A program made the translations under genes and the position numbers. This document shows positions 161 to 20,868 of a stretch of 32,414 bases of DNA, piece by piece. The notes under the pieces were generated by a model. That model was given only the letters and a program-made list of their open reading frames with translations, made no database searches and was not told the DNA's origin. Source of the DNA: a virus (taxonomy: Duplodnaviria; Caudoviricetes); IMG/VR virus record IMGVR_UViG_3300020042_003938, positions 1 to 32,414 of that record; one strand, 5' to 3'. Within the stretch, counting starts at the first letter, position 1, and the number at the start of each line of letters is the position of its first letter.

Positions 161-604
161 ATGATAGAAGAGCAGAAACTGCTCAACTTTTCAGCCGACG
201 TACTCATCACCGCATACGAGGGTGGATACTGTGGCATGGCTAGTTGGGTGACATCAGAAGACGGGCTCACTTGGGGCTCGGAGAATGGGGACTACGAACT
301 GGGCGAGAAAATTTCATACGCCTCGGCTACGGTCTACCGTTTAGATGAAGATTCAGAGACAGGCTACAGCGAAAACCCGTTGAAAATTGACGGAAAGATT
401 ATCGCCGAATTTGTAGCGAAAGTTGGCAAGGGAGAATTCAGTCAAGAATCGCTACCCGAATACGGAAGAATGAACCCCGAGGTTCTAGCAAAACTGGCAG
501 GGGTTTATCTTGGGGTGATTGACCCGGCCGATTGCGACCTAGACGCGCTCGACGCTGACAGTATCGTGCAGATGGTGCTACTCGGTGAGGTTATCTACGG
601 GTGA
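161..604 (+). CDS. Conserved hypothetical phage early protein (acidic)
   Basis: 147 aa ORF; RBS AGGGG at 151-155; C-terminal DLDALDADSIVQMVLLGEVIYG resembles a motif recurrent in phage early proteins. Confidence 0.85.
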   Translation: MIEEQKLLNFSADVLITAYEGGYCGMASWVTSEDGLTWGSENGDYELGEKISYASATVYRLDEDSETGYSENPLKIDGKIIAEFVAKVGKGEFSQESLPEYGRMNPEVLAKLAGVYLGVIDPADCDLDALDADSIVQMVLLGEVIYG

Positions 605-612
605 ACCATCCC

Positions 613-654
613 CCCGTGCGCCTTGGGCGTGCCGATTCAATTCGGACACGGGAC
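613..654 (+). ncRNA. Predicted three-way-junction structured element, copy 2
   Basis: CCCGTG(613-618)/CACGGG(647-652) closes CGCC-TTG-GGCG and CCGA-TTCAAT-TCGG hairpins; lies between the stop at 604 and the CAA-rich leader. Confidence 0.6.
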
Positions 655-690
655 GAAAGACAACAACAACAAAAGAAAGAAGGGCAAGCA

Positions 691-903
691 ATGAGCAATC
701 TATATGCAATAGAAACCGAGACGCACAGCGACTCAACTATCACTCACCTAATCGCCTACGGGCGACAGTTAGAGGGGCGGTATGGCAGATGGCAGGCGTT
801 ATGCGGGCGACATATTGAAGGCGAGGTATGGGGTGCGGGTAGCGTCGAGGGTGGGCGTTGCAAGCATTGTGTGAAAACATATGTTCGGGCGGGCTTGAGA
901 TGA
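691..903 (+). CDS. Small putative Zn-binding protein (H..ALCG..CxxC)
   Basis: Start moved from 601 to ATG 691, which follows the (CAA)n-GAAGGGCAAGCA leader; 70 aa. Confidence 0.75.
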   Translation: MSNLYAIETETHSDSTITHLIAYGRQLEGRYGRWQALCGRHIEGEVWGAGSVEGGRCKHCVKTYVRAGLR

Positions 904-1025
904 TAGTAGATGACAATTTCGTAGGAATAATAATGTTCTTGATTATCGGGGCACTATATTCAGCCTACAAAGTGGGCGAGTATGCAGGCGAGACAAAACA
1001 ACAACAACAAAGGGGCAAGCAATGA
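900..1025 (+). CDS. Small membrane protein (41 aa, not in ORF track)
   Basis: MIVDDNFVGIIMFLIIGALYSAYKVGEYAGETKQQQQRGKQ*; ATGA overlaps at both ends; one hydrophobic helix. Confidence 0.7.
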   Translation: MIVDDNFVGIIMFLIIGALYSAYKVGEYAGETKQQQQRGKQ

Positions 1026-1231
1026 CTAGCGCAGAAGAACTCAAGCAAAACATCGGCAAAACTGGCACGCTGACAGTATCGGGCTCGCCGTTGAGATTTT
1101 CGGTCTTAATACTTGACGCACGGTCACGCTATGGACACCTCGACTACAAGGTCACGCCTGTATCGGGTGACGGTGAGACTTGGCACGCTGGCTCTAATAT
1201 CACGGTACTTGACAACGATTCAAAAGTGTAA
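1022..1231 (+). CDS. Hypothetical phage early protein
   Basis: 69 aa; RBS AGGGG 1011-1015; ATGA-coupled. Confidence 0.8.
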   Translation: MTSAEELKQNIGKTGTLTVSGSPLRFSVLILDARSRYGHLDYKVTPVSGDGETWHAGSNITVLDNDSKV

Positions 1232-1237
1232 TACAAT
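1209..1237 (+). promoter_or_regulatory. Sigma70/SigA-type promoter
   Basis: TTGACA(1209-1214)-17 nt-TACAAT(1232-1237), ahead of the leader of 1267..1554. Confidence 0.8.
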
Positions 1238-1266
1238 AACATAACAACAACAAAAGGGGAATAGCA

Positions 1267-1554
1267 ATGGAAAGAACAACAGAGAAACAACTAGAGCAAC
1301 TGGCAAAGATGATTAGCGAAGAATTAAAGTGGGCTAATTTGTTGCCGAACGAAACAAAGGTAGTGTTAGACAAAGGGAGCAAGACATACGGCAGGGCGTA
1401 CCGTATCTATACGACAGGCTACGAAGGCAACTCAGGCTATTCGGATAAGCCGTTGCACCTTGGCGACGGGTATCTAGGCATCACCAAACGAGAAGCCTAC
1501 CTTTCATTGAGGGCTATCTTGCGAACGCTCGAAGCAGTAAGGGGGGCAAAATGA
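1267..1554 (+). CDS. Hypothetical phage early protein
   Basis: 95 aa; RBS AAGGGGA 1254-1260. Confidence 0.85.
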   Translation: MERTTEKQLEQLAKMISEELKWANLLPNETKVVLDKGSKTYGRAYRIYTTGYEGNSGYSDKPLHLGDGYLGITKREAYLSLRAILRTLEAVRGAK

Positions 1555-1760
1555 GCGAGACATATATTGACAACGCCGAAGAAGCATATATTGCTTATTG
1601 GGTTGAAGCAAACGAAAACAACACAGAGCAGATGAGTTGGGAAGAAATGGCAAAACTCACACACTCAACACAAGTAGGGATATTTGGGTATTGCTTTTGT
1701 GAAGACAACGACGGCAATGAGAACCCATATTCGGACTGTCCTAAACAGGAGACAGCATAA
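1551..1760 (+). CDS. Small acidic Cys-containing protein
   Basis: 69 aa; ATGA overlap; H..FGYCFCED..PYSDC. Confidence 0.75.
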   Translation: MSETYIDNAEEAYIAYWVEANENNTEQMSWEEMAKLTHSTQVGIFGYCFCEDNDGNENPYSDCPKQETA

Positions 1761-1939
1761 TGCCACGCACAAAACAACTAAATATAAAAGCAATACTAAA
1801 AGCCTACGAAGCGGAAGCAAAACGCGCAGAGCGTAACGCAAAAGCGTACAGGGGCGACAGCCTCGAAGCGTACTGGCTAGAGCATGCTTGCAAGGTTAGA
1901 AAATGCAAACAATTAGCAGAAGAGCAAACAGCACAATGA
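1760..1939 (+). CDS. Hypothetical protein (59 aa, not in ORF track)
   Basis: MPRTKQLNIKAILKAYEAEAKRAERNAKAYRGDSLEAYWLEHACKVRKCKQLAEEQTAQ*; TAATG and ATGA overlaps; AGGAG RBS. Confidence 0.75.
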   Translation: MPRTKQLNIKAILKAYEAEAKRAERNAKAYRGDSLEAYWLEHACKVRKCKQLAEEQTAQ

Positions 1940-2091
1940 AACTATCCACGATGAATGTCTTACGACAGTGTTTTGATTGCGCCCAATACCGTTACGAAGT
2001 TTATTGTGACCCGATAGACGGCGCATACTTTTGTCAGCGATGCCATGATGAACGAGTAAGAGAGCAGGAGGGGGTGAGTTATGGAGAGTGA
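1936..2091 (+). CDS. Small Zn-finger protein (CxxC...CxxC)
   Basis: ATG 1936 overlaps the previous stop; CFDC and CQRC. Confidence 0.7.
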   Translation: MKLSTMNVLRQCFDCAQYRYEVYCDPIDGAYFCQRCHDERVREQEGVSYGE

Positions 2092-2218
2092 GACAGCGAG
2101 AGCGTTTATTTTCGTCGCAGTTTGTTTGCTTTGGGTTGCCCCGTTTGCGGTGAACAGTTGGAGAGAAGCGCAGAGGGAGCGAAGCAAAGCAAAACATCCG
2201 ACAGCACGAATGAAATAA
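2081..2218 (+). CDS. Small membrane protein (45 aa, not in ORF track)
   Basis: MESETARAFIFVAVCLLWVAPFAVNSWREAQRERSKAKHPTARMK*; strong RBS GGAGGGGG; hydrophobic helix then basic tail. Confidence 0.7.
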   Translation: MESETARAFIFVAVCLLWVAPFAVNSWREAQRERSKAKHPTARMK

Positions 2219-2261
2219 CAAACAATAAAAAACAAACAACACAACAACAGGAGAAAATTAA

Positions 2262-2477
2262 ATGAACGAATACGGGATAAAAGATAGAGACTTACCAAAG
2301 GTAAGTATGAAGGGAACGCCAAGAAGCGTTGTAACAAATAGCAATATCGTAGAAATCTGGTGCTCAAGTCCTACGGGCGACGCCTCAGATGTTTCAATCC
2401 TTACTCTTATTTGCGCTACAAGTTCGCAGGCAGATATAATCGCTGAGACTTGGCTTAAAGTTTGGGGACTTGCATAA
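2262..2477 (+). CDS. Hypothetical phage protein
   Basis: 71 aa; A/C-rich leader and AGGAG RBS. Confidence 0.8.
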   Translation: MNEYGIKDRDLPKVSMKGTPRSVVTNSNIVEIWCSSPTGDASDVSILTLICATSSQADIIAETWLKVWGLA

Positions 2478-2650
2478 TGAAAGCATTAGAGACAGTCAAA
2501 CTAATAGAGGTCACACTCGTACTATCCATAGAAACCTACGGCACACAACAAATGTTCTGTGGCATGGACTACATCGTGGTGCAAGACGAAGCACAGGTGC
2601 TCGGCTGGTCAGAGCGTGAACTGCAAGTCACACCAAAAGAAGGCGAGTGA
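2477..2650 (+). CDS. Hypothetical phage protein
   Basis: Start at the TAATG overlap (2477); 57 aa. Confidence 0.7.
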   Translation: MKALETVKLIEVTLVLSIETYGTQQMFCGMDYIVVQDEAQVLGWSERELQVTPKEGE

Positions 2651-2841
2651 CAATGACCTCACCAACTCAAAGCGTATGGAATGTTGAGTTTACTGGTGAC
2701 TATTTTGCACTGACCTCAACAGTCATGGCAGACAACGAAGATGAGGCAGTAGTAAATGCTACGCACCTACTCTTGAAACACTATGGAATCAACATAGATG
2801 CTATTAGCAATGAGATAAATGTATGGGAGATAGCGCAATGA
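2647..2841 (+). CDS. Hypothetical phage protein
   Basis: 64 aa; GTGA overlap; V.A.NEDEA motif. Confidence 0.7.
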   Translation: MTMTSPTQSVWNVEFTGDYFALTSTVMADNEDEAVVNATHLLLKHYGINIDAISNEINVWEIAQ

Positions 2842-2969
2842 AATTGAAGCAACGCACAATGTCTTTCGAAACTTGGTGCAGGTTCAATGACCTAGACCCA
2901 GCAGACCTAGACACAAACTACATTACATACCTAAACTGGAAAGAGGAGCAATGCAAGACACAGCAATAA
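2838..2969 (+). CDS. Hypothetical protein (43 aa, not in ORF track)
   Basis: MKLKQRTMSFETWCRFNDLDPADLDTNYITYLNWKEEQCKTQQ*; ATGA overlap; fills the gap. Confidence 0.65.
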   Translation: MKLKQRTMSFETWCRFNDLDPADLDTNYITYLNWKEEQCKTQQ

Positions 2970-3259
2970 TGGCAATAGCAGACAGCGAACTATCGCTACT
3001 GCAAGCCTTCACACAAGGCTACATCAATGCGCTCGTCGCACACGACAAAGCGTACGAAGGGATGGATGAGTTCTATTGTTTCAATGACAAGTGGGACATC
3101 AACATTCATTCAGTTGGGCAGAAGCCGAGAACTATATACGCAGTTGCGTATCCGCAGACGCTCGACAAGGACGGGTATCTGTCCACCGATACATCTCATT
3201 GGGTTGAGGTAGGTCAGTACGACATGAACGGGACAGCCAAACGAAAGGTAACACAATGA
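2951..3259 (+). CDS. Hypothetical phage protein
   Basis: 102 aa; RBS GAGGAG. Confidence 0.8.
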   Translation: MQDTAIMAIADSELSLLQAFTQGYINALVAHDKAYEGMDEFYCFNDKWDINIHSVGQKPRTIYAVAYPQTLDKDGYLSTDTSHWVEVGQYDMNGTAKRKVTQ

Positions 3260-3429
3260 AAACATTTAAGATACTTGTAAGAGAGAGCAACTATGTCGCC
3301 TACTTTGTTGAAGGCGCAGACAAATATGACGCCCAAGAAAACTGGGCAAACAATGGTTACGACAGCGAAAACCAAAAGATAGTAGACAGCGAGAACGACA
3401 TCTTGGGATGCGAAGAGGTGACACAATGA
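3256..3429 (+). CDS. Hypothetical protein (57 aa, not in ORF track)
   Basis: MKTFKILVRESNYVAYFVEGADKYDAQENWANNGYDSENQKIVDSENDILGCEEVTQ*; ATGA overlaps at both ends. Confidence 0.75.
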   Translation: MKTFKILVRESNYVAYFVEGADKYDAQENWANNGYDSENQKIVDSENDILGCEEVTQ

Positions 3430-3572
3430 AAGACCGTGAAAATATACAGATAGCAGATTTGGTTAAAGCAATGGTGGAAGCAGAACCGTGTTTGTTTGGC
3501 AACTCTACAGCCAACCTCATGCCCGTCATCGTAAAACAATTTGAACCATTATCGGAGACATCTAATGATTAA
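3426..3572 (+). CDS. Hypothetical protein (48 aa, not in ORF track)
   Basis: MKDRENIQIADLVKAMVEAEPCLFGNSTANLMPVIVKQFEPLSETSND*; RBS GAGGTG, ATGA overlap. Confidence 0.6.
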   Translation: MKDRENIQIADLVKAMVEAEPCLFGNSTANLMPVIVKQFEPLSETSND

Positions 3573-3894
3573 GCAACCAACAGTACACCACTACATCCTG
3601 ACCTACGACAGCGACAACGAACTGTGGTATCACGACGTAGAAACCGAACGAGAGAAGTTCCCTGATGGTGCAACGATGAACCTAGACACAGGCAAAACCT
3701 CTTGGGGTTATCTAGGTGACGGCGAGTACGCACCGAACGAATCAGAATTGAACGAGCAAATAGTCCGAACAGTCCGACAACTTAATCAAAATAGTCGTGA
3801 AGTACCATTCACGGTAGAAGACTTTGAAGACTACAAAATTGCCGAACTAGAGGACGAAGTGTCGCGCACCCACATACCATACCCACCGTTTTGA
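3565..3894 (+). CDS. Acidic hypothetical phage protein
   Basis: ATG 3565 follows GGAGA; 109 aa. Confidence 0.8.
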   Translation: MIKQPTVHHYILTYDSDNELWYHDVETEREKFPDGATMNLDTGKTSWGYLGDGEYAPNESELNEQIVRTVRQLNQNSREVPFTVEDFEDYKIAELEDEVSRTHIPYPPF

Positions 3895-3942
3895 AACGCT
3901 CTAATGCGCTCCTAATGCGTACTATTTTACCGAAAGACCGCG

Positions 3943-4242
3943 ATGTTAAACAAAACCCACCGCTACTACCTGCGCTACAAAATCTACAAACAAGAAAAGA
4001 AAATTAAAAAACTGTGGAAGTATCAACCACCAAACAAACTATTTATAGTCGTTCGGTACAGAGGTATTGCGCCCATCGGATATTGGAAAGGGAGACACTA
4101 TCGAAACGGGCAGATGTTCACCGCACACCCACACAAAAGTTGTATGTTCAACAACGAGCAAAGCGCACAATGGGCTTTAAAAAACAGCGAACTGGTGTAC
4201 GAATCAAGCCCGCTAAAATACAAGGTAGTACGAATCAAATAG
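3943..4242 (+). CDS. Basic hypothetical protein
   Basis: 99 aa, Lys/Arg/Tyr rich; last + strand gene; weak RBS. Confidence 0.65.
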   Translation: MLNKTHRYYLRYKIYKQEKKIKKLWKYQPPNKLFIVVRYRGIAPIGYWKGRHYRNGQMFTAHPHKSCMFNNEQSAQWALKNSELVYESSPLKYKVVRIK

Positions 4243-4247
4243 TTTTG

Positions 4248-4256
4248 TGCTAGCAT
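4248..4256 (+). promoter_or_regulatory. Candidate extended -10 promoter for the 4263 hairpin RNA
   Basis: TG-C-TAGCAT, 6 nt upstream of the hairpin's first base. Confidence 0.4.
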
Positions 4257-4262
4257 AAAGTT

Positions 4263-4323
4263 TGGATTTGCCCTGCTCCGCAGGTATCCCCTTCCCTAGC
4301 GTTGTAGCGGGGCAAGTCCATTT
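4263..4323 (+). ncRNA. Long hairpin at the transcription convergence point (candidate sRNA and/or bidirectional terminator)
   Basis: TGGATTTGCCCTGCT(4263-4277) pairs with AGCGGGGCAAGTCCA(4306-4320), with two G-U pairs that form only on the + strand; inner CGC/GCG and AGG/CCT; loop TATCCCCTTC; followed by TTT. Confidence 0.6.
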
Positions 4324-4595
4324 AACTTACCGCCTGTCCCACCATGACGACGGTACTCGCGTTCTCTTGGGGTCTTGCCACCCCACACACCGTACCTTCT
4401 GACATCATTCGTTTCGCATTCCATAGCGTAAGCCAAACATTTATCTGCGACAGGGCAACGCTCACAAATCTTTACCGCTTGGTCATAGATACCAGCGACG
4501 GACACACCGACGGCTGTATCTGGGAAGAAGATATTGGTTCTCATTCCTCGACATAACGCTTTGTTAAACCAATTCAATTGGTTAAACTCAATCAT
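4296..4595 (-). CDS. whiB: WhiB family transcriptional regulator
   Basis: Four Cys (C..FFP..CxxCPV..C) and the YGVWGG turn. Confidence 0.95.
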   Translation of the reverse strand: MIEFNQLNWFNKALCRGMRTNIFFPDTAVGVSVAGIYDQAVKICERCPVADKCLAYAMECETNDVRRYGVWGGKTPREREYRRHGGTGGKLNGLAPLQR

Positions 4596-8066: not shown

Positions 8067-9022
8067 ACTTTTTCCCCTTTCAGGAGAAGTGTTCGGTTAG
8101 CTATTTGTTTACTGTATTTTTCTGCTATCGCTGGCTCTAATGCTTTCAACGTTTTGATGTCTAGGCTTGCCCATGTTCTGCCTTTCCATGTGGCGATGAT
8201 TGTGCCGTTCACGGTGGCGTATTCGTTCGCACCTATCATGTCGCACAGTTCTGCTTTCAATCTGTCTTCCATCTCTGTGTACGCTTTCAATTCTTTCTTA
8301 ACGTGTTTCAGTTGCTCTACCAGTTCTGATGCTGTCGGGGGCAGTTCCACAGATGTGCCTGTCGGCTTCTGGTAGCGGGTGCTAATCGTTTCATATGACC
8401 AATGCACACCGTCTGGGGTAATGCCAAGGTCAATAGATGTAAGCCATTTTGCTACAGCGTCACAATGCTCCTGCTTTTCTTCGTCAGATATCTTCTGTTC
8501 ATGGATGTATAGAACCATGGTGGAGTCGAACACAGCCCATGTGATGAGGTCTACGTCGGCGCAGATGGCTTGCTGGATGCCTTGGATGCGCCAATAGTCT
8601 GGCAGTTCGCCACCCCATTCACGGCTCATCGTTTTGATTTCCAACACTTTGCGGTCATCACCGTTCTCGTACAGTCCGTCGAGAGTGGCTATCATCCGTG
8701 AACCTTCAGGTGTTTCTGCAACAAACATTTCTTCTGGTGTGAGATATGCGATACCTGTTTTGTCGCAAGCCCATTGCAACACGAACGGCTCTAGACGGTT
8801 CCCTCGTTCCATTGCAGGGTTCGGTGGTATCGGTGATGGTGGCACGTCACCTAATAGTTCTGCGGCATATTTGTCTGCTGGTACGAATGGGTGTAGCCCG
8901 TAGATTGCGGCGACCGCTGATGCGGATACCCGTTTACGTTTCTTGTCATCCCAGAATCTGAGATTCAACCAGTCTTGTTCCCCGTGTGTAGGTTTAGTGA
9001 TGCGTTGCAATGTGATGTTCAT
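8063..9022 (-). CDS. YqaJ-like viral recombinase / lambda-type exonuclease
   Basis: WL..R..VSAS..AAI.G..P, M.RG..LEP, ATLDG, LEIKT, Y..Q..QQ; start ATG 9022 after GAAGGGA. Confidence 0.92.
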   Translation of the reverse strand: MNITLQRITKPTHGEQDWLNLRFWDDKKRKRVSASAVAAIYGLHPFVPADKYAAELLGDVPPSPIPPNPAMERGNRLEPFVLQWACDKTGIAYLTPEEMFVAETPEGSRMIATLDGLYENGDDRKVLEIKTMSREWGGELPDYWRIQGIQQAICADVDLITWAVFDSTMVLYIHEQKISDEEKQEHCDAVAKWLTSIDLGITPDGVHWSYETISTRYQKPTGTSVELPPTASELVEQLKHVKKELKAYTEMEDRLKAELCDMIGANEYATVNGTIIATWKGRTWASLDIKTLKALEPAIAEKYSKQIANRTLLLKGEKV

Positions 9023-9053
9023 GTGTTCCCTTCTCGTAGTTGATACTTGTAAT

Positions 9054-9082
9054 ACTGTATAGCAGATTGGGGTGGCTGTCAA
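9054..9082 (-). promoter_or_regulatory. Sigma70/SigA-type promoter of the recombination operon
   Basis: TTGACA(9082-9077)-17 nt-TACAGT(9059-9054); a GGGGT/ACCCC inverted repeat overlaps the -35. Confidence 0.75.
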
Positions 9083-19196: not shown

Positions 19197-19489
19197 GTAA
19201 TGTAACTCCCGTATCCTGCGGCTGTTAACGCTGTAACTTCTTCTGCTGTGACTTCGTTGTTGTGTCCACCATAATATGTTTTTGTAACAGTTGTCATATC
19301 TGACGGCTGTTTTTCTACATACGAATTATTGGATAGTAGATACACGTTTTTGCCTCGGGGTGATGCCACGATATGTGTACCTAGCCTGTTTGCTAAACGT
19401 TGTTCTTTTGGTAGATATTGTCCGTTCATGTGTTCGCCAACAATTACTGGTACAACTAGGTCTTCTGTGGGTGGGCTGAATGTGGACAT
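19193..19489 (-). CDS. Virion protein, paralogous to the C-terminus of 19489..20451
   Basis: Shares N.Y.L.N..Y, YYGGH and EV..LTAAGYG..IT. Confidence 0.8.
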   Translation of the reverse strand: MSTFSPPTEDLVVPVIVGEHMNGQYLPKEQRLANRLGTHIVASPRGKNVYLLSNNSYVEKQPSDMTTVTKTYYGGHNNEVTAEEVTALTAAGYGSYIT

Positions 19490-20451
19490 TATGTGATGCT
19501 CGCTCCGTATCCTGCTGCTGTTAGTTCTGCTACTTCTGTGTCGTCTAAGAAAATGTCATGTCCACCGTAATACACTTTTGATATAAGTTCTGGTCTGCGT
19601 GGGTCTGTTATCTGATATGTGCTGTTTGTTAGTTTATACAGGTTGTATGCCCTGATTCCTTGAGGTGCGAAAGCAAACAATCTGTCACTGCCTTCAGCAA
19701 ACTTTGGTGCGAAAGAATATGTTGATGTGTTTGGTACACGGAAGATATGTGACTTGACCCATCCGCTATCTGTTTCTGTTCCTGTTCCTGAACCTGTGGC
19801 GGTGCGTCGATTGATTCTTGCGCCAACACTTTCCGATGTTCCTGTTCCTGAACCTGTGGCGGTGCGGATAGATACCAGTAGCCAGTTGGCTGTGCCTGTG
19901 CCGTCACCCTGACCTGTGGCGGTGCGGACATTGACGACTATGTGGACGCTTGTACTTGACCCGACACCTGAACCTGTTGCGGTACGGACTGGTATCAAAA
20001 CACCCGTTGTTGATGATGTCCCTAAGCCTGAACCTGTCGCTGTTCGTGGTGCGATGTGTAACCCTGTGGTGGTTTGTGTACCTGTACCTGAACCTGTAGC
20101 AGTTTTTATTATTGTCAACAAACCTGTAGCAGTCTGAGTGCCTGTACCTGAACCCGTAGCGGTGCGTTGTCTTAAGACAGATGCACTACTTGATGCTGTA
20201 CCTAAACCTGAACCTGTTGCTGTGATGGTGAACACGGCACGCACACCAAGATAGAAACGACCGCCCGTAAGATACGGAAAACTGAAGTCTGTTAGTTGAC
20301 CTAAACGTGTTTGCGATGCGCCATGCACCGCAGAGTCTGTACCTATCCCCGTTCCTGTTGCTGTGCGTTGTACTACCTGAAAATATGTTCCCCGATAAAA
20401 CGGGCGTGTATCAACAAACGGTTCTTTAAAACCTGTAACTGCTGTAGTCAT
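19489..20451 (-). CDS. Repeat-containing virion fibre/decoration protein
   Basis: Nine (R)TATGSGxG repeats. Confidence 0.8.
   Translation of the reverse strand: MTTAVTGFKEPFVDTRPFYRGTYFQVVQRTATGTGIGTDSAVHGASQTRLGQLTDFSFPYLTGGRFYLGVRAVFTITATGSGLGTASSSASVLRQRTATGSGTGTQTATGLLTIIKTATGSGTGTQTTTGLHIAPRTATGSGLGTSSTTGVLIPVRTATGSGVGSSTSVHIVVNVRTATGQGDGTGTANWLLVSIRTATGSGTGTSESVGARINRRTATGSGTGTETDSGWVKSHIFRVPNTSTYSFAPKFAEGSDRLFAFAPQGIRAYNLYKLTNSTYQITDPRRPELISKVYYGGHDIFLDDTEVAELTAAGYGASIT
19778..20226 (-). repeat. Eight in-frame 60-nt tandem repeats (20-aa period)
   Basis: CCTG.ACCTGT.GC core at 19781, 19841 and so on to 20201, exactly 60 nt apart. Confidence 0.9.
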
Positions 20452-20470
20452 AAGGGGTTATCCCCTATGT

Positions 20471-20859: not shown

Positions 20860-20868
20860 AGTATAGCA
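20860..20868 (-). promoter_or_regulatory. Candidate extended -10 promoter overlapping the terminator tail
   Basis: TG-C-TATACT, 20 nt upstream of ATG 20839. Confidence 0.45.

Follow-up and report, generated by a model that had tools for sequence, protein, structure and literature searches.

At the junction of two convergent gene modules in a 32.4-kb virus record of 46% GC (the whole stretch analysed here, hereafter the window) lies a short hairpin with a promoter box of its own, which, on comparative sequence evidence, is a member of an uncatalogued, strongly covarying RNA family of freshwater phages. That the hairpin is a functional RNA of some kind appears very probable. The specific reading favored here, which we regard as probable but well short of settled, is that it is made late as a stand-alone RNA whose loop blocks the AAGGGG-type ribosome-binding sites (RBSs) that precede early and recombination genes of the phage itself, and that it doubles as the terminator of the early transcript. 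The element has the following parts:

4248-4256, + strand: extended -10 box TG-C-TAGCAT (TGCTAGCAT), with a predicted start at about 4263; the -35 region is without TTGACA (best match 2/6)
4263-4323, + strand: predicted hairpin RNA of about 60 nt, with a 15-bp outer stem, an inner helix and a short U/pyrimidine tail
4285-4294, + strand: loop TATCCCCTTC = UAUCCCCUUC, with predicted seed UCCCCUUC, unpaired in the fold

The outer stem (T4263-T4277 with A4306-A4320) includes two G-U pairs, is followed by TTT at 4321-4323, and is separated from the -10 box by the six nucleotides AAAGTT; thus, everything that a sequence-only reading of the window had described of the hairpin, its 15-bp stem, its upstream box and its end is indeed in the sequence. 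The + strand of 4263-4323 folds at -31.8 kcal/mol (z -6.2, with 0/200 shuffles equally good) and the - strand at -25.0 kcal/mol (z -3.1), the CCCCU of the loop is computed to be about 90% unpaired, and the hairpin is the single strong copy within the window. The G-U pairs in the stem assign the RNA to the + strand. That same reading had further proposed that the 5' arm TTTGCCCT pairs with the RGGGCAAR part of the early leaders; this finds no support, for the arm lies paired inside the stem and is variable across the family. Its fallback, namely that the element is just a bidirectional terminator, also fares poorly: G-U pairs on the + strand occur in all 18 representatives folded, the loop is conserved, and the absence of a - strand U tail (a mean of 2.3 T in 10 nt, as against 4.2 on the + strand) indicates that the hairpin does not terminate in both directions. 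The T count in the 10 nt 3' of the hairpin ranges from 1 to 7 across 19 members, and the tail in the window, TTTAACTT, receives no call from a terminator scan. Rfam searches returned nothing at E <= 5 over the hairpin and nothing at gathering score in 7 relatives. Eight RNA runs came into question, all of them as assembled contigs with small shares; of the 4 that were aligned, one probably-DNA contig spans the hairpin and is uninformative on transcript ends.

Evidence for a functional RNA comes from its relatives. Among 59 whiB loci screened, comprising 50 usable ones with WhiB 50-99% identical, one (L005) that ends inside whiB, and the 8 most distant, the hairpin occupies the same place in 50/50 usable loci, and the 8 most distant have no match to model R1. 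A first pattern scan yielded 119 loci, of which 100 were checked with R1 and 11 matched, the remainder being chance matches or already known contigs, while annealase-based scans reached members whose stems have almost no sequence in common. Each of 15 close sequences forms the full set of 15 consensus pairs, and each one-sided change produces a G-U pair on the + strand. Across 22 sequences two-sided changes occur at 14 of the 15 pairs, 96.5% of the cells pair (37-49% in slid controls), and the covariation score is 0.569 versus 0.216 when shuffled, in an alignment that was fitted to the model and therefore leans towards structure. Folded singly, 18 representatives form 14-25 pairs with G-U pairs in all, and the + strand is the more stable in 17 of them. 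The conserved CCCCTT-type loop on a variable stem that had been anticipated for related phages is thus what is seen: the stem changes with compensation and the loop persists. It is invariant in alignment A1, with CCC..UC invariant in alignment A6; the invariant C-rich loop of the family spans 8-14 nt, and its forms, with 3-7 C and one loop per hairpin, include UUUCCCCUUC, UACCCCCUUC, UUCGUCCCCUUC, UUUCCCCCUCUUUC and UAUUUCCCUUUCUC. The loops of 6C RNAs, considered below, have six or more C.

A box matching TG.TA...T stands directly before the stem, exactly in 15 of 18 representatives and as a near match in 2, with none in L355, and such a box at a fixed distance ahead of a structure, here recognized by sequence match, would be expected of a stand-alone trans-acting sRNA gene. 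The -35 fit in the family is mostly 2-4/6, reaching 5/6 in two members. The end of whiB may read through the hairpin, stop inside it or stop before it, and the loop is kept in every case; hence, coding does not account for the conservation. As regards the idea of a conserved peptide, the stems differ in length and by indels among relatives. The reach of the models is bounded: R2 at E < 1 has no match in G011-G013, G017, G018, G020, L331, L336, L367, L054 or L400, and the L355/G011 and L400 members, at only 15-17 bits with R2, are assigned by position and fold. A GTDB pattern scan for the hairpin gave 0 matches, and R2 in 60 genomes of the candidate host family found no chromosomal copy and nothing beyond a phage contig. 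A long perfect hairpin with a TTTCCCCTTCTC loop on a high-GC, bacterial-looking contig (L278:670-735, + strand) scores 22 bits with R2 and was left out of the family as probably unrelated.

A + strand module of small genes (161-4242) converges on a - strand run coding for WhiB, DUF6378, SSB, SLT, RusA-like, RHH, annealase and YqaJ proteins followed by lysis and structural genes, and two genes flank the hairpin:

3943-4242, + strand: c0, 99 aa, conserved last gene of the early module, of no known family or fold
4296-4595, - strand: whiB (PF02467), last gene of the convergent middle module, overlapping the 3' arm of the hairpin

A c0 homolog lies directly upstream of the hairpin in 18/19 representatives, and in a later set of 47 loci box and hairpin sit right behind c0 in all 17 c0-bearing loci, 14 of which are new contigs and many near-identical. 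The association is nonetheless separable in both directions: c0 is present without the hairpin in G012, G017, G018 and L331, and the unit occurs without c0 in L400, in the sibling hairpins and in the CUCU clade described below. The c0 protein has no Pfam or PHROG match; in fold comparisons (Foldseek E at least 3.2, VIA Z at most 4.3, best Atlas match 0.85 and unnamed) no RNA-binding or nuclease fold was recognizable. Neighbors other than whiB are found in L355, in L400 and beside the sibling hairpins. INPHARED contains only distant matches (whiB 37-47%, capsid 41-44%), and WhiB, together with a capsid closest to those of Streptomyces phages (41-44%), points to an actinobacterial host; a relative's contig (L373) sits in a bin titled uncultured Acidimicrobiaceae, a weak host hint only. 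Between close relatives (L336 versus L350 and L363) the early module is seemingly inverted.

The proposed partners of the loop emerge from how ribosome sites are distributed over gene classes, where 'early' and 'late' are labels inferred from gene content, position and promoter type, and where genes were called with a home-made caller (codon score plus Shine-Dalgarno energy) that misses some genes, notably in G086 and G088. In 14 element-bearing genomes AAGGGG sites precede 32 of 193 early starts, 16 of 41 SSB, annealase or yqaJ starts, 5 of 131 other middle starts and 0 of 431 late starts, which gives comparative support to the claim that one class of RBS is restricted to the early and recombination genes. 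AGGAG or GGAGG is found in the same genomes at 41 early, 2 recombination, 25 other middle and 72 late starts. Counted by protein family, the AAGGGG figures are 21/107 versus 0/88 (p 1.7e-6), and with cruder, distance-only classes the ratio of AAGGGG to AAGGAG is 32:23 early versus 5:24 late (p 4e-4), both p values being too small because the genomes are related. AAGGG occurs at 25/27 early or middle genes behind TTGAC promoters, where the sites cluster with CAA-rich leaders, and only about one-sixth of the called early genes have AAGGGG. Duplication of promoter-leader cassettes could be the source of part of the early enrichment. The sites listed from the sequence of the window, that is AAGGGGA at 1254-1260 and 8073-8079, AAGGGG or GAAGGG before 691, 1022, 1551 and yqaJ, and AGGGGATA before 20451, are all present. 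When the 61 starts of the window are ranked by pairing with the loop, opening costs included, the top six are 1267, 1551, 691, yqaJ, 1022 and 161:

1254-1260, + strand: AAGGGGA as the RBS of gene 1267, a candidate target (rank 1/61, -9.7 kcal/mol)
1539-1545, + strand: AAGGGGG as the RBS of gene 1551, a candidate target (rank 2)
679-684, + strand: GAAGGG as the RBS of gene 691, a candidate target (rank 3)
9028-9033, - strand: GAAGGG as the RBS of yqaJ, whose start is probably at 9022, a candidate target (rank 4)
1010-1015, + strand: AAGGGG as the RBS of gene 1022, a candidate target (rank 5)
151-155, + strand: AGGGG as the RBS of gene 161, a candidate target (rank 6)
8073-8079, - strand: AAGGGGA at the annealase RBS, partly sequestered locally, -4.4 kcal/mol

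Gene 20451, which had also been named as a target, is not supported as one: it is a late gene, its AGGGGATA is buried in a hairpin of its own, and it falls outside the top 16 starts. In that leader the Shine-Dalgarno (SD) sequence of late gene 19489-20451 is closed together with the start codon (20447-20469, - strand), and similar self-complementary leaders are seen in G003, G004 and G006.

The pairings are short (6-9 nt), and AAGGGGA is not over-represented as such, with 3 matches in the window, one of them the hairpin itself, versus 2.4 expected; the departure from chance lies in its placement at starts. The annealase RBS is AAGGGG in 18 of 27 homologs, and the 8-mer GAAGGGGA is confined to the hairpin itself in 7 of 10 records, three complete genomes among them; on these two counts a single conserved phage target gene was rejected. 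Some genomes with a CCC loop have few sites (AAGGGG at 0/48 starts in G089, 1/53 in G003 and 1/67 in G002), early sites that match at 7 or more positions number 0-1 in the group L381/386/407, and G012, G017 and G018, where the junction hairpin is missing, still have AAAGGGG at yqaJ. Covariation of loop variants with the early sites of the same genomes is weak over 7 loop types (permutation p 0.043 and 0.060); the check for loop and early RBS changing together thus succeeds at the level of clades, through one joint switch described below, and only weakly on the finer scale. Two further features of the early regions may be recorded. A CTTAAGAC motif is repeated directly before many early start codons in L381, L386, L407, L379 and L377. 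Three-way-junction elements, one hairpin of which resembles a tRNA T-arm (TTCRA loop), occupy early intergenic positions in the window (613-652, + strand) and likewise the early regions of G002, G004, G006, G081, G082 and G083; the window copy has a z of only -1.45, and they are possibly processing or stability signals.

The predicted timing of the RNA is read from its promoter box. A survey of promoters in 14 genomes, with shuffled controls for TG.TA...T, placed this box upstream of 7/193 early, 11/148 middle and 78/454 late genes (6.9, 6.7 and 25 after shuffling) and TTGAC-type promoters upstream of 17/193 early, 10/148 middle and 3/454 late genes. The early class is represented in the window by:

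1209-1237, + strand: TTGACA-17-TACAAT ahead of gene 1267
9054-9082, - strand: TTGACA-17-TACAGT ahead of yqaJ

Two classes may be discerned, TTGAC-17-TANNNT for the early genes and yqaJ, and TG-N-TANNNT without a -35 for late genes; with boxes of the latter class (e.g., 20860-20868, - strand, in the window) some genes are apparently leaderless, the box lying 6-10 nt from the ATG. WhiB is a candidate activator. Since the -10 box of the hairpin is of the late class, late expression of the hairpin RNA is inferred.

If the loop is to silence early genes and leave late ones in play, it has to discriminate where the ribosome does not, and the computed energies have this property. The 16S tail binds AAGGAG and AAGGGG at -13.4 and -12.5 kcal/mol and the loop at -4.8 and -11.7 kcal/mol; in other words, the loop tells the two apart by about 7 kcal/mol, whereas the 16S tail reads both almost equally. 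AAGGGG would thus act as a G-U wobble tag, one to which the ribosome is indifferent but the loop responds. A variant 16S tail in the host was considered and rejected, the tail being the canonical CACCUCCUUUCU in 18/18 genomes read from the candidate host family (G016 itself is without the 16S end). Accepting these elements, the sequence of events would be as follows: the hairpin RNA would be transcribed from its late-class -10 box with the late genes; its CCCCUU loop would pair with AAGGGG or GAAGGG sites of the phage's own early and recombination mRNAs; pairing over the RBS would, by analogy with RsaE/RoxS and 6C, block initiation without a chaperone; late AAGGAG-type sites would be spared; and the same hairpin would probably also end the early transcript. 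Of the original proposal of one sRNA shutting off the early and recombination genes, the core has gained comparative support in the C-rich loop, the variable stem and the lack of AAGGGG at late starts, while its 5'-arm, whiB and 20451 components are not supported.

A parallel case emerged in a sister clade. Relatives without c0 and without the hairpin element have AGAGAG as their ribosome sites; from this a CUCUCU loop was predicted, and then found, in an intergenic unit of a TATACT box and a hairpin:

L514:13654, L516:16126, L517:12052 and L486:10091, all + strand: -10 box with CUCUCUC-loop hairpin

The loops are GCUCUCUCUC in L514 and L516-518 and UACUCUCUC in L486 (z -4.5 and -3.5). Such a hairpin was found in 5 of 20 loci scanned, other loci being shorter or without clear resolution. 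Three genomes of this clade have 0 AAGGGG and 10 AGAGAG in 138 starts, as against 58 AAGGGG and 4 AGAGAG in 929 starts of 16 CCC-loop genomes; AGAGAG stands at 0/34 late homologs in the clade, and in the complete genome G086 all AGAGAGAG-start matches fall within 24.8-32.0 kb. The CUCU hairpin is located elsewhere than that of the window and has no R2 match, the comparison being one of box, fold and loop only. In an annealase tree (31/32 rows) the AGAGAG/CUCU phages form one clade (support 87/99), and the switch of loop and RBS therefore counts as a single evolutionary event. These observations suggest a more general scheme, a wobble-based translational timer, in which a clade-specific G-U SD tag (AAGGGG or AGAGAG) would be read by the ribosome and silenced by a late anti-tag hairpin, with late genes bearing canonical AGGAG being spared; we consider this scheme about as apt to be right as wrong.

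A second kind of unit with the same loop theme may accompany or replace the junction hairpin, both copies being present in some genomes:

L469:7505, L479:664, L489:7423, L495:7441, L508:7437 and others, - strand: sibling hairpin with its own TG.TA...T box

Its loop is GUCGUU(U/A)CCCC(C)UUUCUCC, and it is intergenic, near lysis genes and opposite to both neighbors, so that it cannot terminate upstream genes. Several look-alikes were also recorded. More distant whiB phages have promoter-plus-hairpin units at L052:1652 (G013) and L054:1682, both on the + strand, with loops UUCCCCUUUGU and ACCCUCCUCCCUUC. In G013, whose hairpin is a CCCCUUUGU look-alike, AAGGGG stands at 0/44 starts, and the ribosome sites of L054 are GGAGG. 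Where the junction element is absent, L336:11557, L350:10442 and L363:13091 (all - strand) have a TG(A/C)TACCAT box and, behind it, a small hairpin centered on ACCCCUUGC, and G012 has a post-capsid stem with a UUUUCCCCU loop (L411:9505-9545, - strand; the window has UUCG there), by which a late 3' end could, from its sequence, provide the same seed. In L394 (9489-9420, - strand) and L395 another long hairpin, its loop being AUCUUCCCCCC, precedes the element by about 200 nt.

One of the closest known systems is RsaE of Staphylococcus aureus, or RoxS of Bacillus subtilis, in which, according to the part of PMC6158497 consulted, single-stranded CCCCUU pairs with an AAGGGG SD-like motif and blocks translation. 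The seed of the phage hairpin is the same, and here too an unpaired CCCCUU complementary to AAGGGG has one copy in a stem-loop (PMC6158497, same part). The phage RNA differs in being phage-encoded, in being a single hairpin of about 60 nt with one motif rather than two, in having no Rfam match and in having the phage's own temporal gene class as predicted targets. The duplicated motif that typifies RsaE/RoxS is lacking, each hairpin having one loop, with a separate second hairpin in some genomes; by this analogy, the phage hairpin would work like RsaE/RoxS and yet not be a member of that family. The 6C sRNA of Actinobacteria, whose C-rich loops need no chaperone to pair with G-rich RBSs (PMC6486639, in the portion available), presents the same pairing logic within the host phylum; it is, however, chromosomal with several C-rich stem-loops (L2 and L3 in that portion), as against the single hairpin here, and the 6C Rfam model matches neither the phage hairpin nor 7 relatives.

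Among phages, the SAS motifs of cluster K mycobacteriophages overlap the RBSs of non-structural genes only and have one inverted copy away from starts, and whether an RNA or a protein reads them is left open by the authors in the available sections of PMC3203893. The arrangement in our phages is a looser, 6-7 nt version of this, with an RBS motif in non-structural genes and a lone inverted copy. SAS, as given in those sections, is a fixed 13-mer with canonical AGGAG, whereas the site in our phages is a wobble variant of 6-7 nt, and its inverse copy forms the loop of a conserved hairpin preceded by a -10 box; the 13-bp SAS consensus GGGATAGGAGCCC does not occur in the upstream regions examined, which have AAGGGG-type sites instead. 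The T4 RegB endoribonuclease, a protein nuclease that cuts GGAG, targets the SD of early phage mRNAs (PMC1702504, as excerpted); it too recognizes early mRNAs through the SD, the difference being that an RNA, and not a protein, would do the reading here. The phage antisense RNAs sar, c4 and OOP are 60-80 nt long and repress phage genes, and each has one main target with long complementarity (table in the accessible part of PMC12197685). None of the phage sRNAs tabulated in that part addresses a whole class of the phage's own RBSs. No description of the hairpin RNA was found in the literature covered; four supplementary files of PMC10690425 are without such motifs, and its alignment archives and large files may contain the family.

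The favored reading has to be weighed against several others. The hairpin might be a genuine sRNA whose main targets are host mRNAs with AAGGGG, in the manner of RsaE-like reprogramming, late phage genes then avoiding the motif and early ones being bystanders. Five genomes of the candidate host family do have AAGGGG-ATG about as enriched as AAGGAG-ATG (252 vs 162 control; 336 vs 244), with GAAGGGGA-ATG at 36 vs 12, so that host mRNAs would be paired too; moreover, the loop stays constant even in genomes with few matches of their own, and this reading explains the late avoidance equally well. We nevertheless think it unlikely, for the 16S tail is canonical in all 18 genomes read and the AGAGAG clade nevertheless shows a joint switch of loop and phage RBS, early starts are enriched for AAGGGG beyond mere tolerance, and the 12 sites read in what is only a candidate host share no common gene or conserved target. 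An improbable variant has the RNA acting with or through a protein, as a c0 complex, by guiding the cleavage of mRNAs or by decoying an RNA-binding factor of the host: the near-constant position of c0 ahead of the hairpin speaks for it, though each occurs without the other, c0 has no recognizable RNA-binding or nuclease fold, and adjacency may just reflect a shared position at the module end.

That the element is a terminator only, with the RBS class arising from duplicated promoter-leader-RBS cassettes and the loop match incidental, would suit its location in most relatives, immediately behind c0 where the early and middle modules converge, the + strand pyrimidine tail, and the clustering of AAGGG sites behind TTGAC promoters. 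It is quite improbable in view of the invariant loop and the fixed-distance -10 box, needless in a terminator, of the copies that lie away from convergences (L400) or opposite both neighbors (siblings), and of the missing - strand U tail and terminator call. Very improbable, too, is a loop working as part of the early mRNA, at the 3' end of that transcript, or one that stabilizes or activates its partners, in place of repression by a separate late RNA; the hairpin is on the early-module strand at the module end and the direction of regulation is unreadable from sequence, but yqaJ and annealase are on the opposite strand, the hairpin's own -10 box is conserved, and SD pairing normally blocks ribosomes, at least in the parts of PMC6158497 and PMC6486639 at hand. 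Finally, a cis-antisense role towards whiB, which the sequence-only reading had hinted at from the overlap with the whiB 3' end, is scarcely credible: the hairpin adjoins whiB in most relatives, yet the overlap may be complete, partial or absent, L355, L400 and the siblings have other neighbors, and the conservation of the loop would be left unexplained.

If the late anti-RBS reading is correct, a lytic phage would need no more than a single 60-nt RNA, and no protein dedicated to the task, to silence an entire temporal class of its genes translationally, and the wobble timer would be an RNA-only counterpart of T4 RegB that could also explain the SAS motifs of cluster K, whose reader, RNA or protein in the available sections of PMC3203893, is now a question reducible to a two-base swap. 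The pairs AAGGGG/CCCCUU and AGAGAG/CUCUCU would then constitute a natural orthogonal tag pair for compact, chaperone-free translational control in Actinobacteria. Even if host mRNAs should prove to be the targets, the hairpin remains an uncatalogued, strongly covarying phage RNA family.
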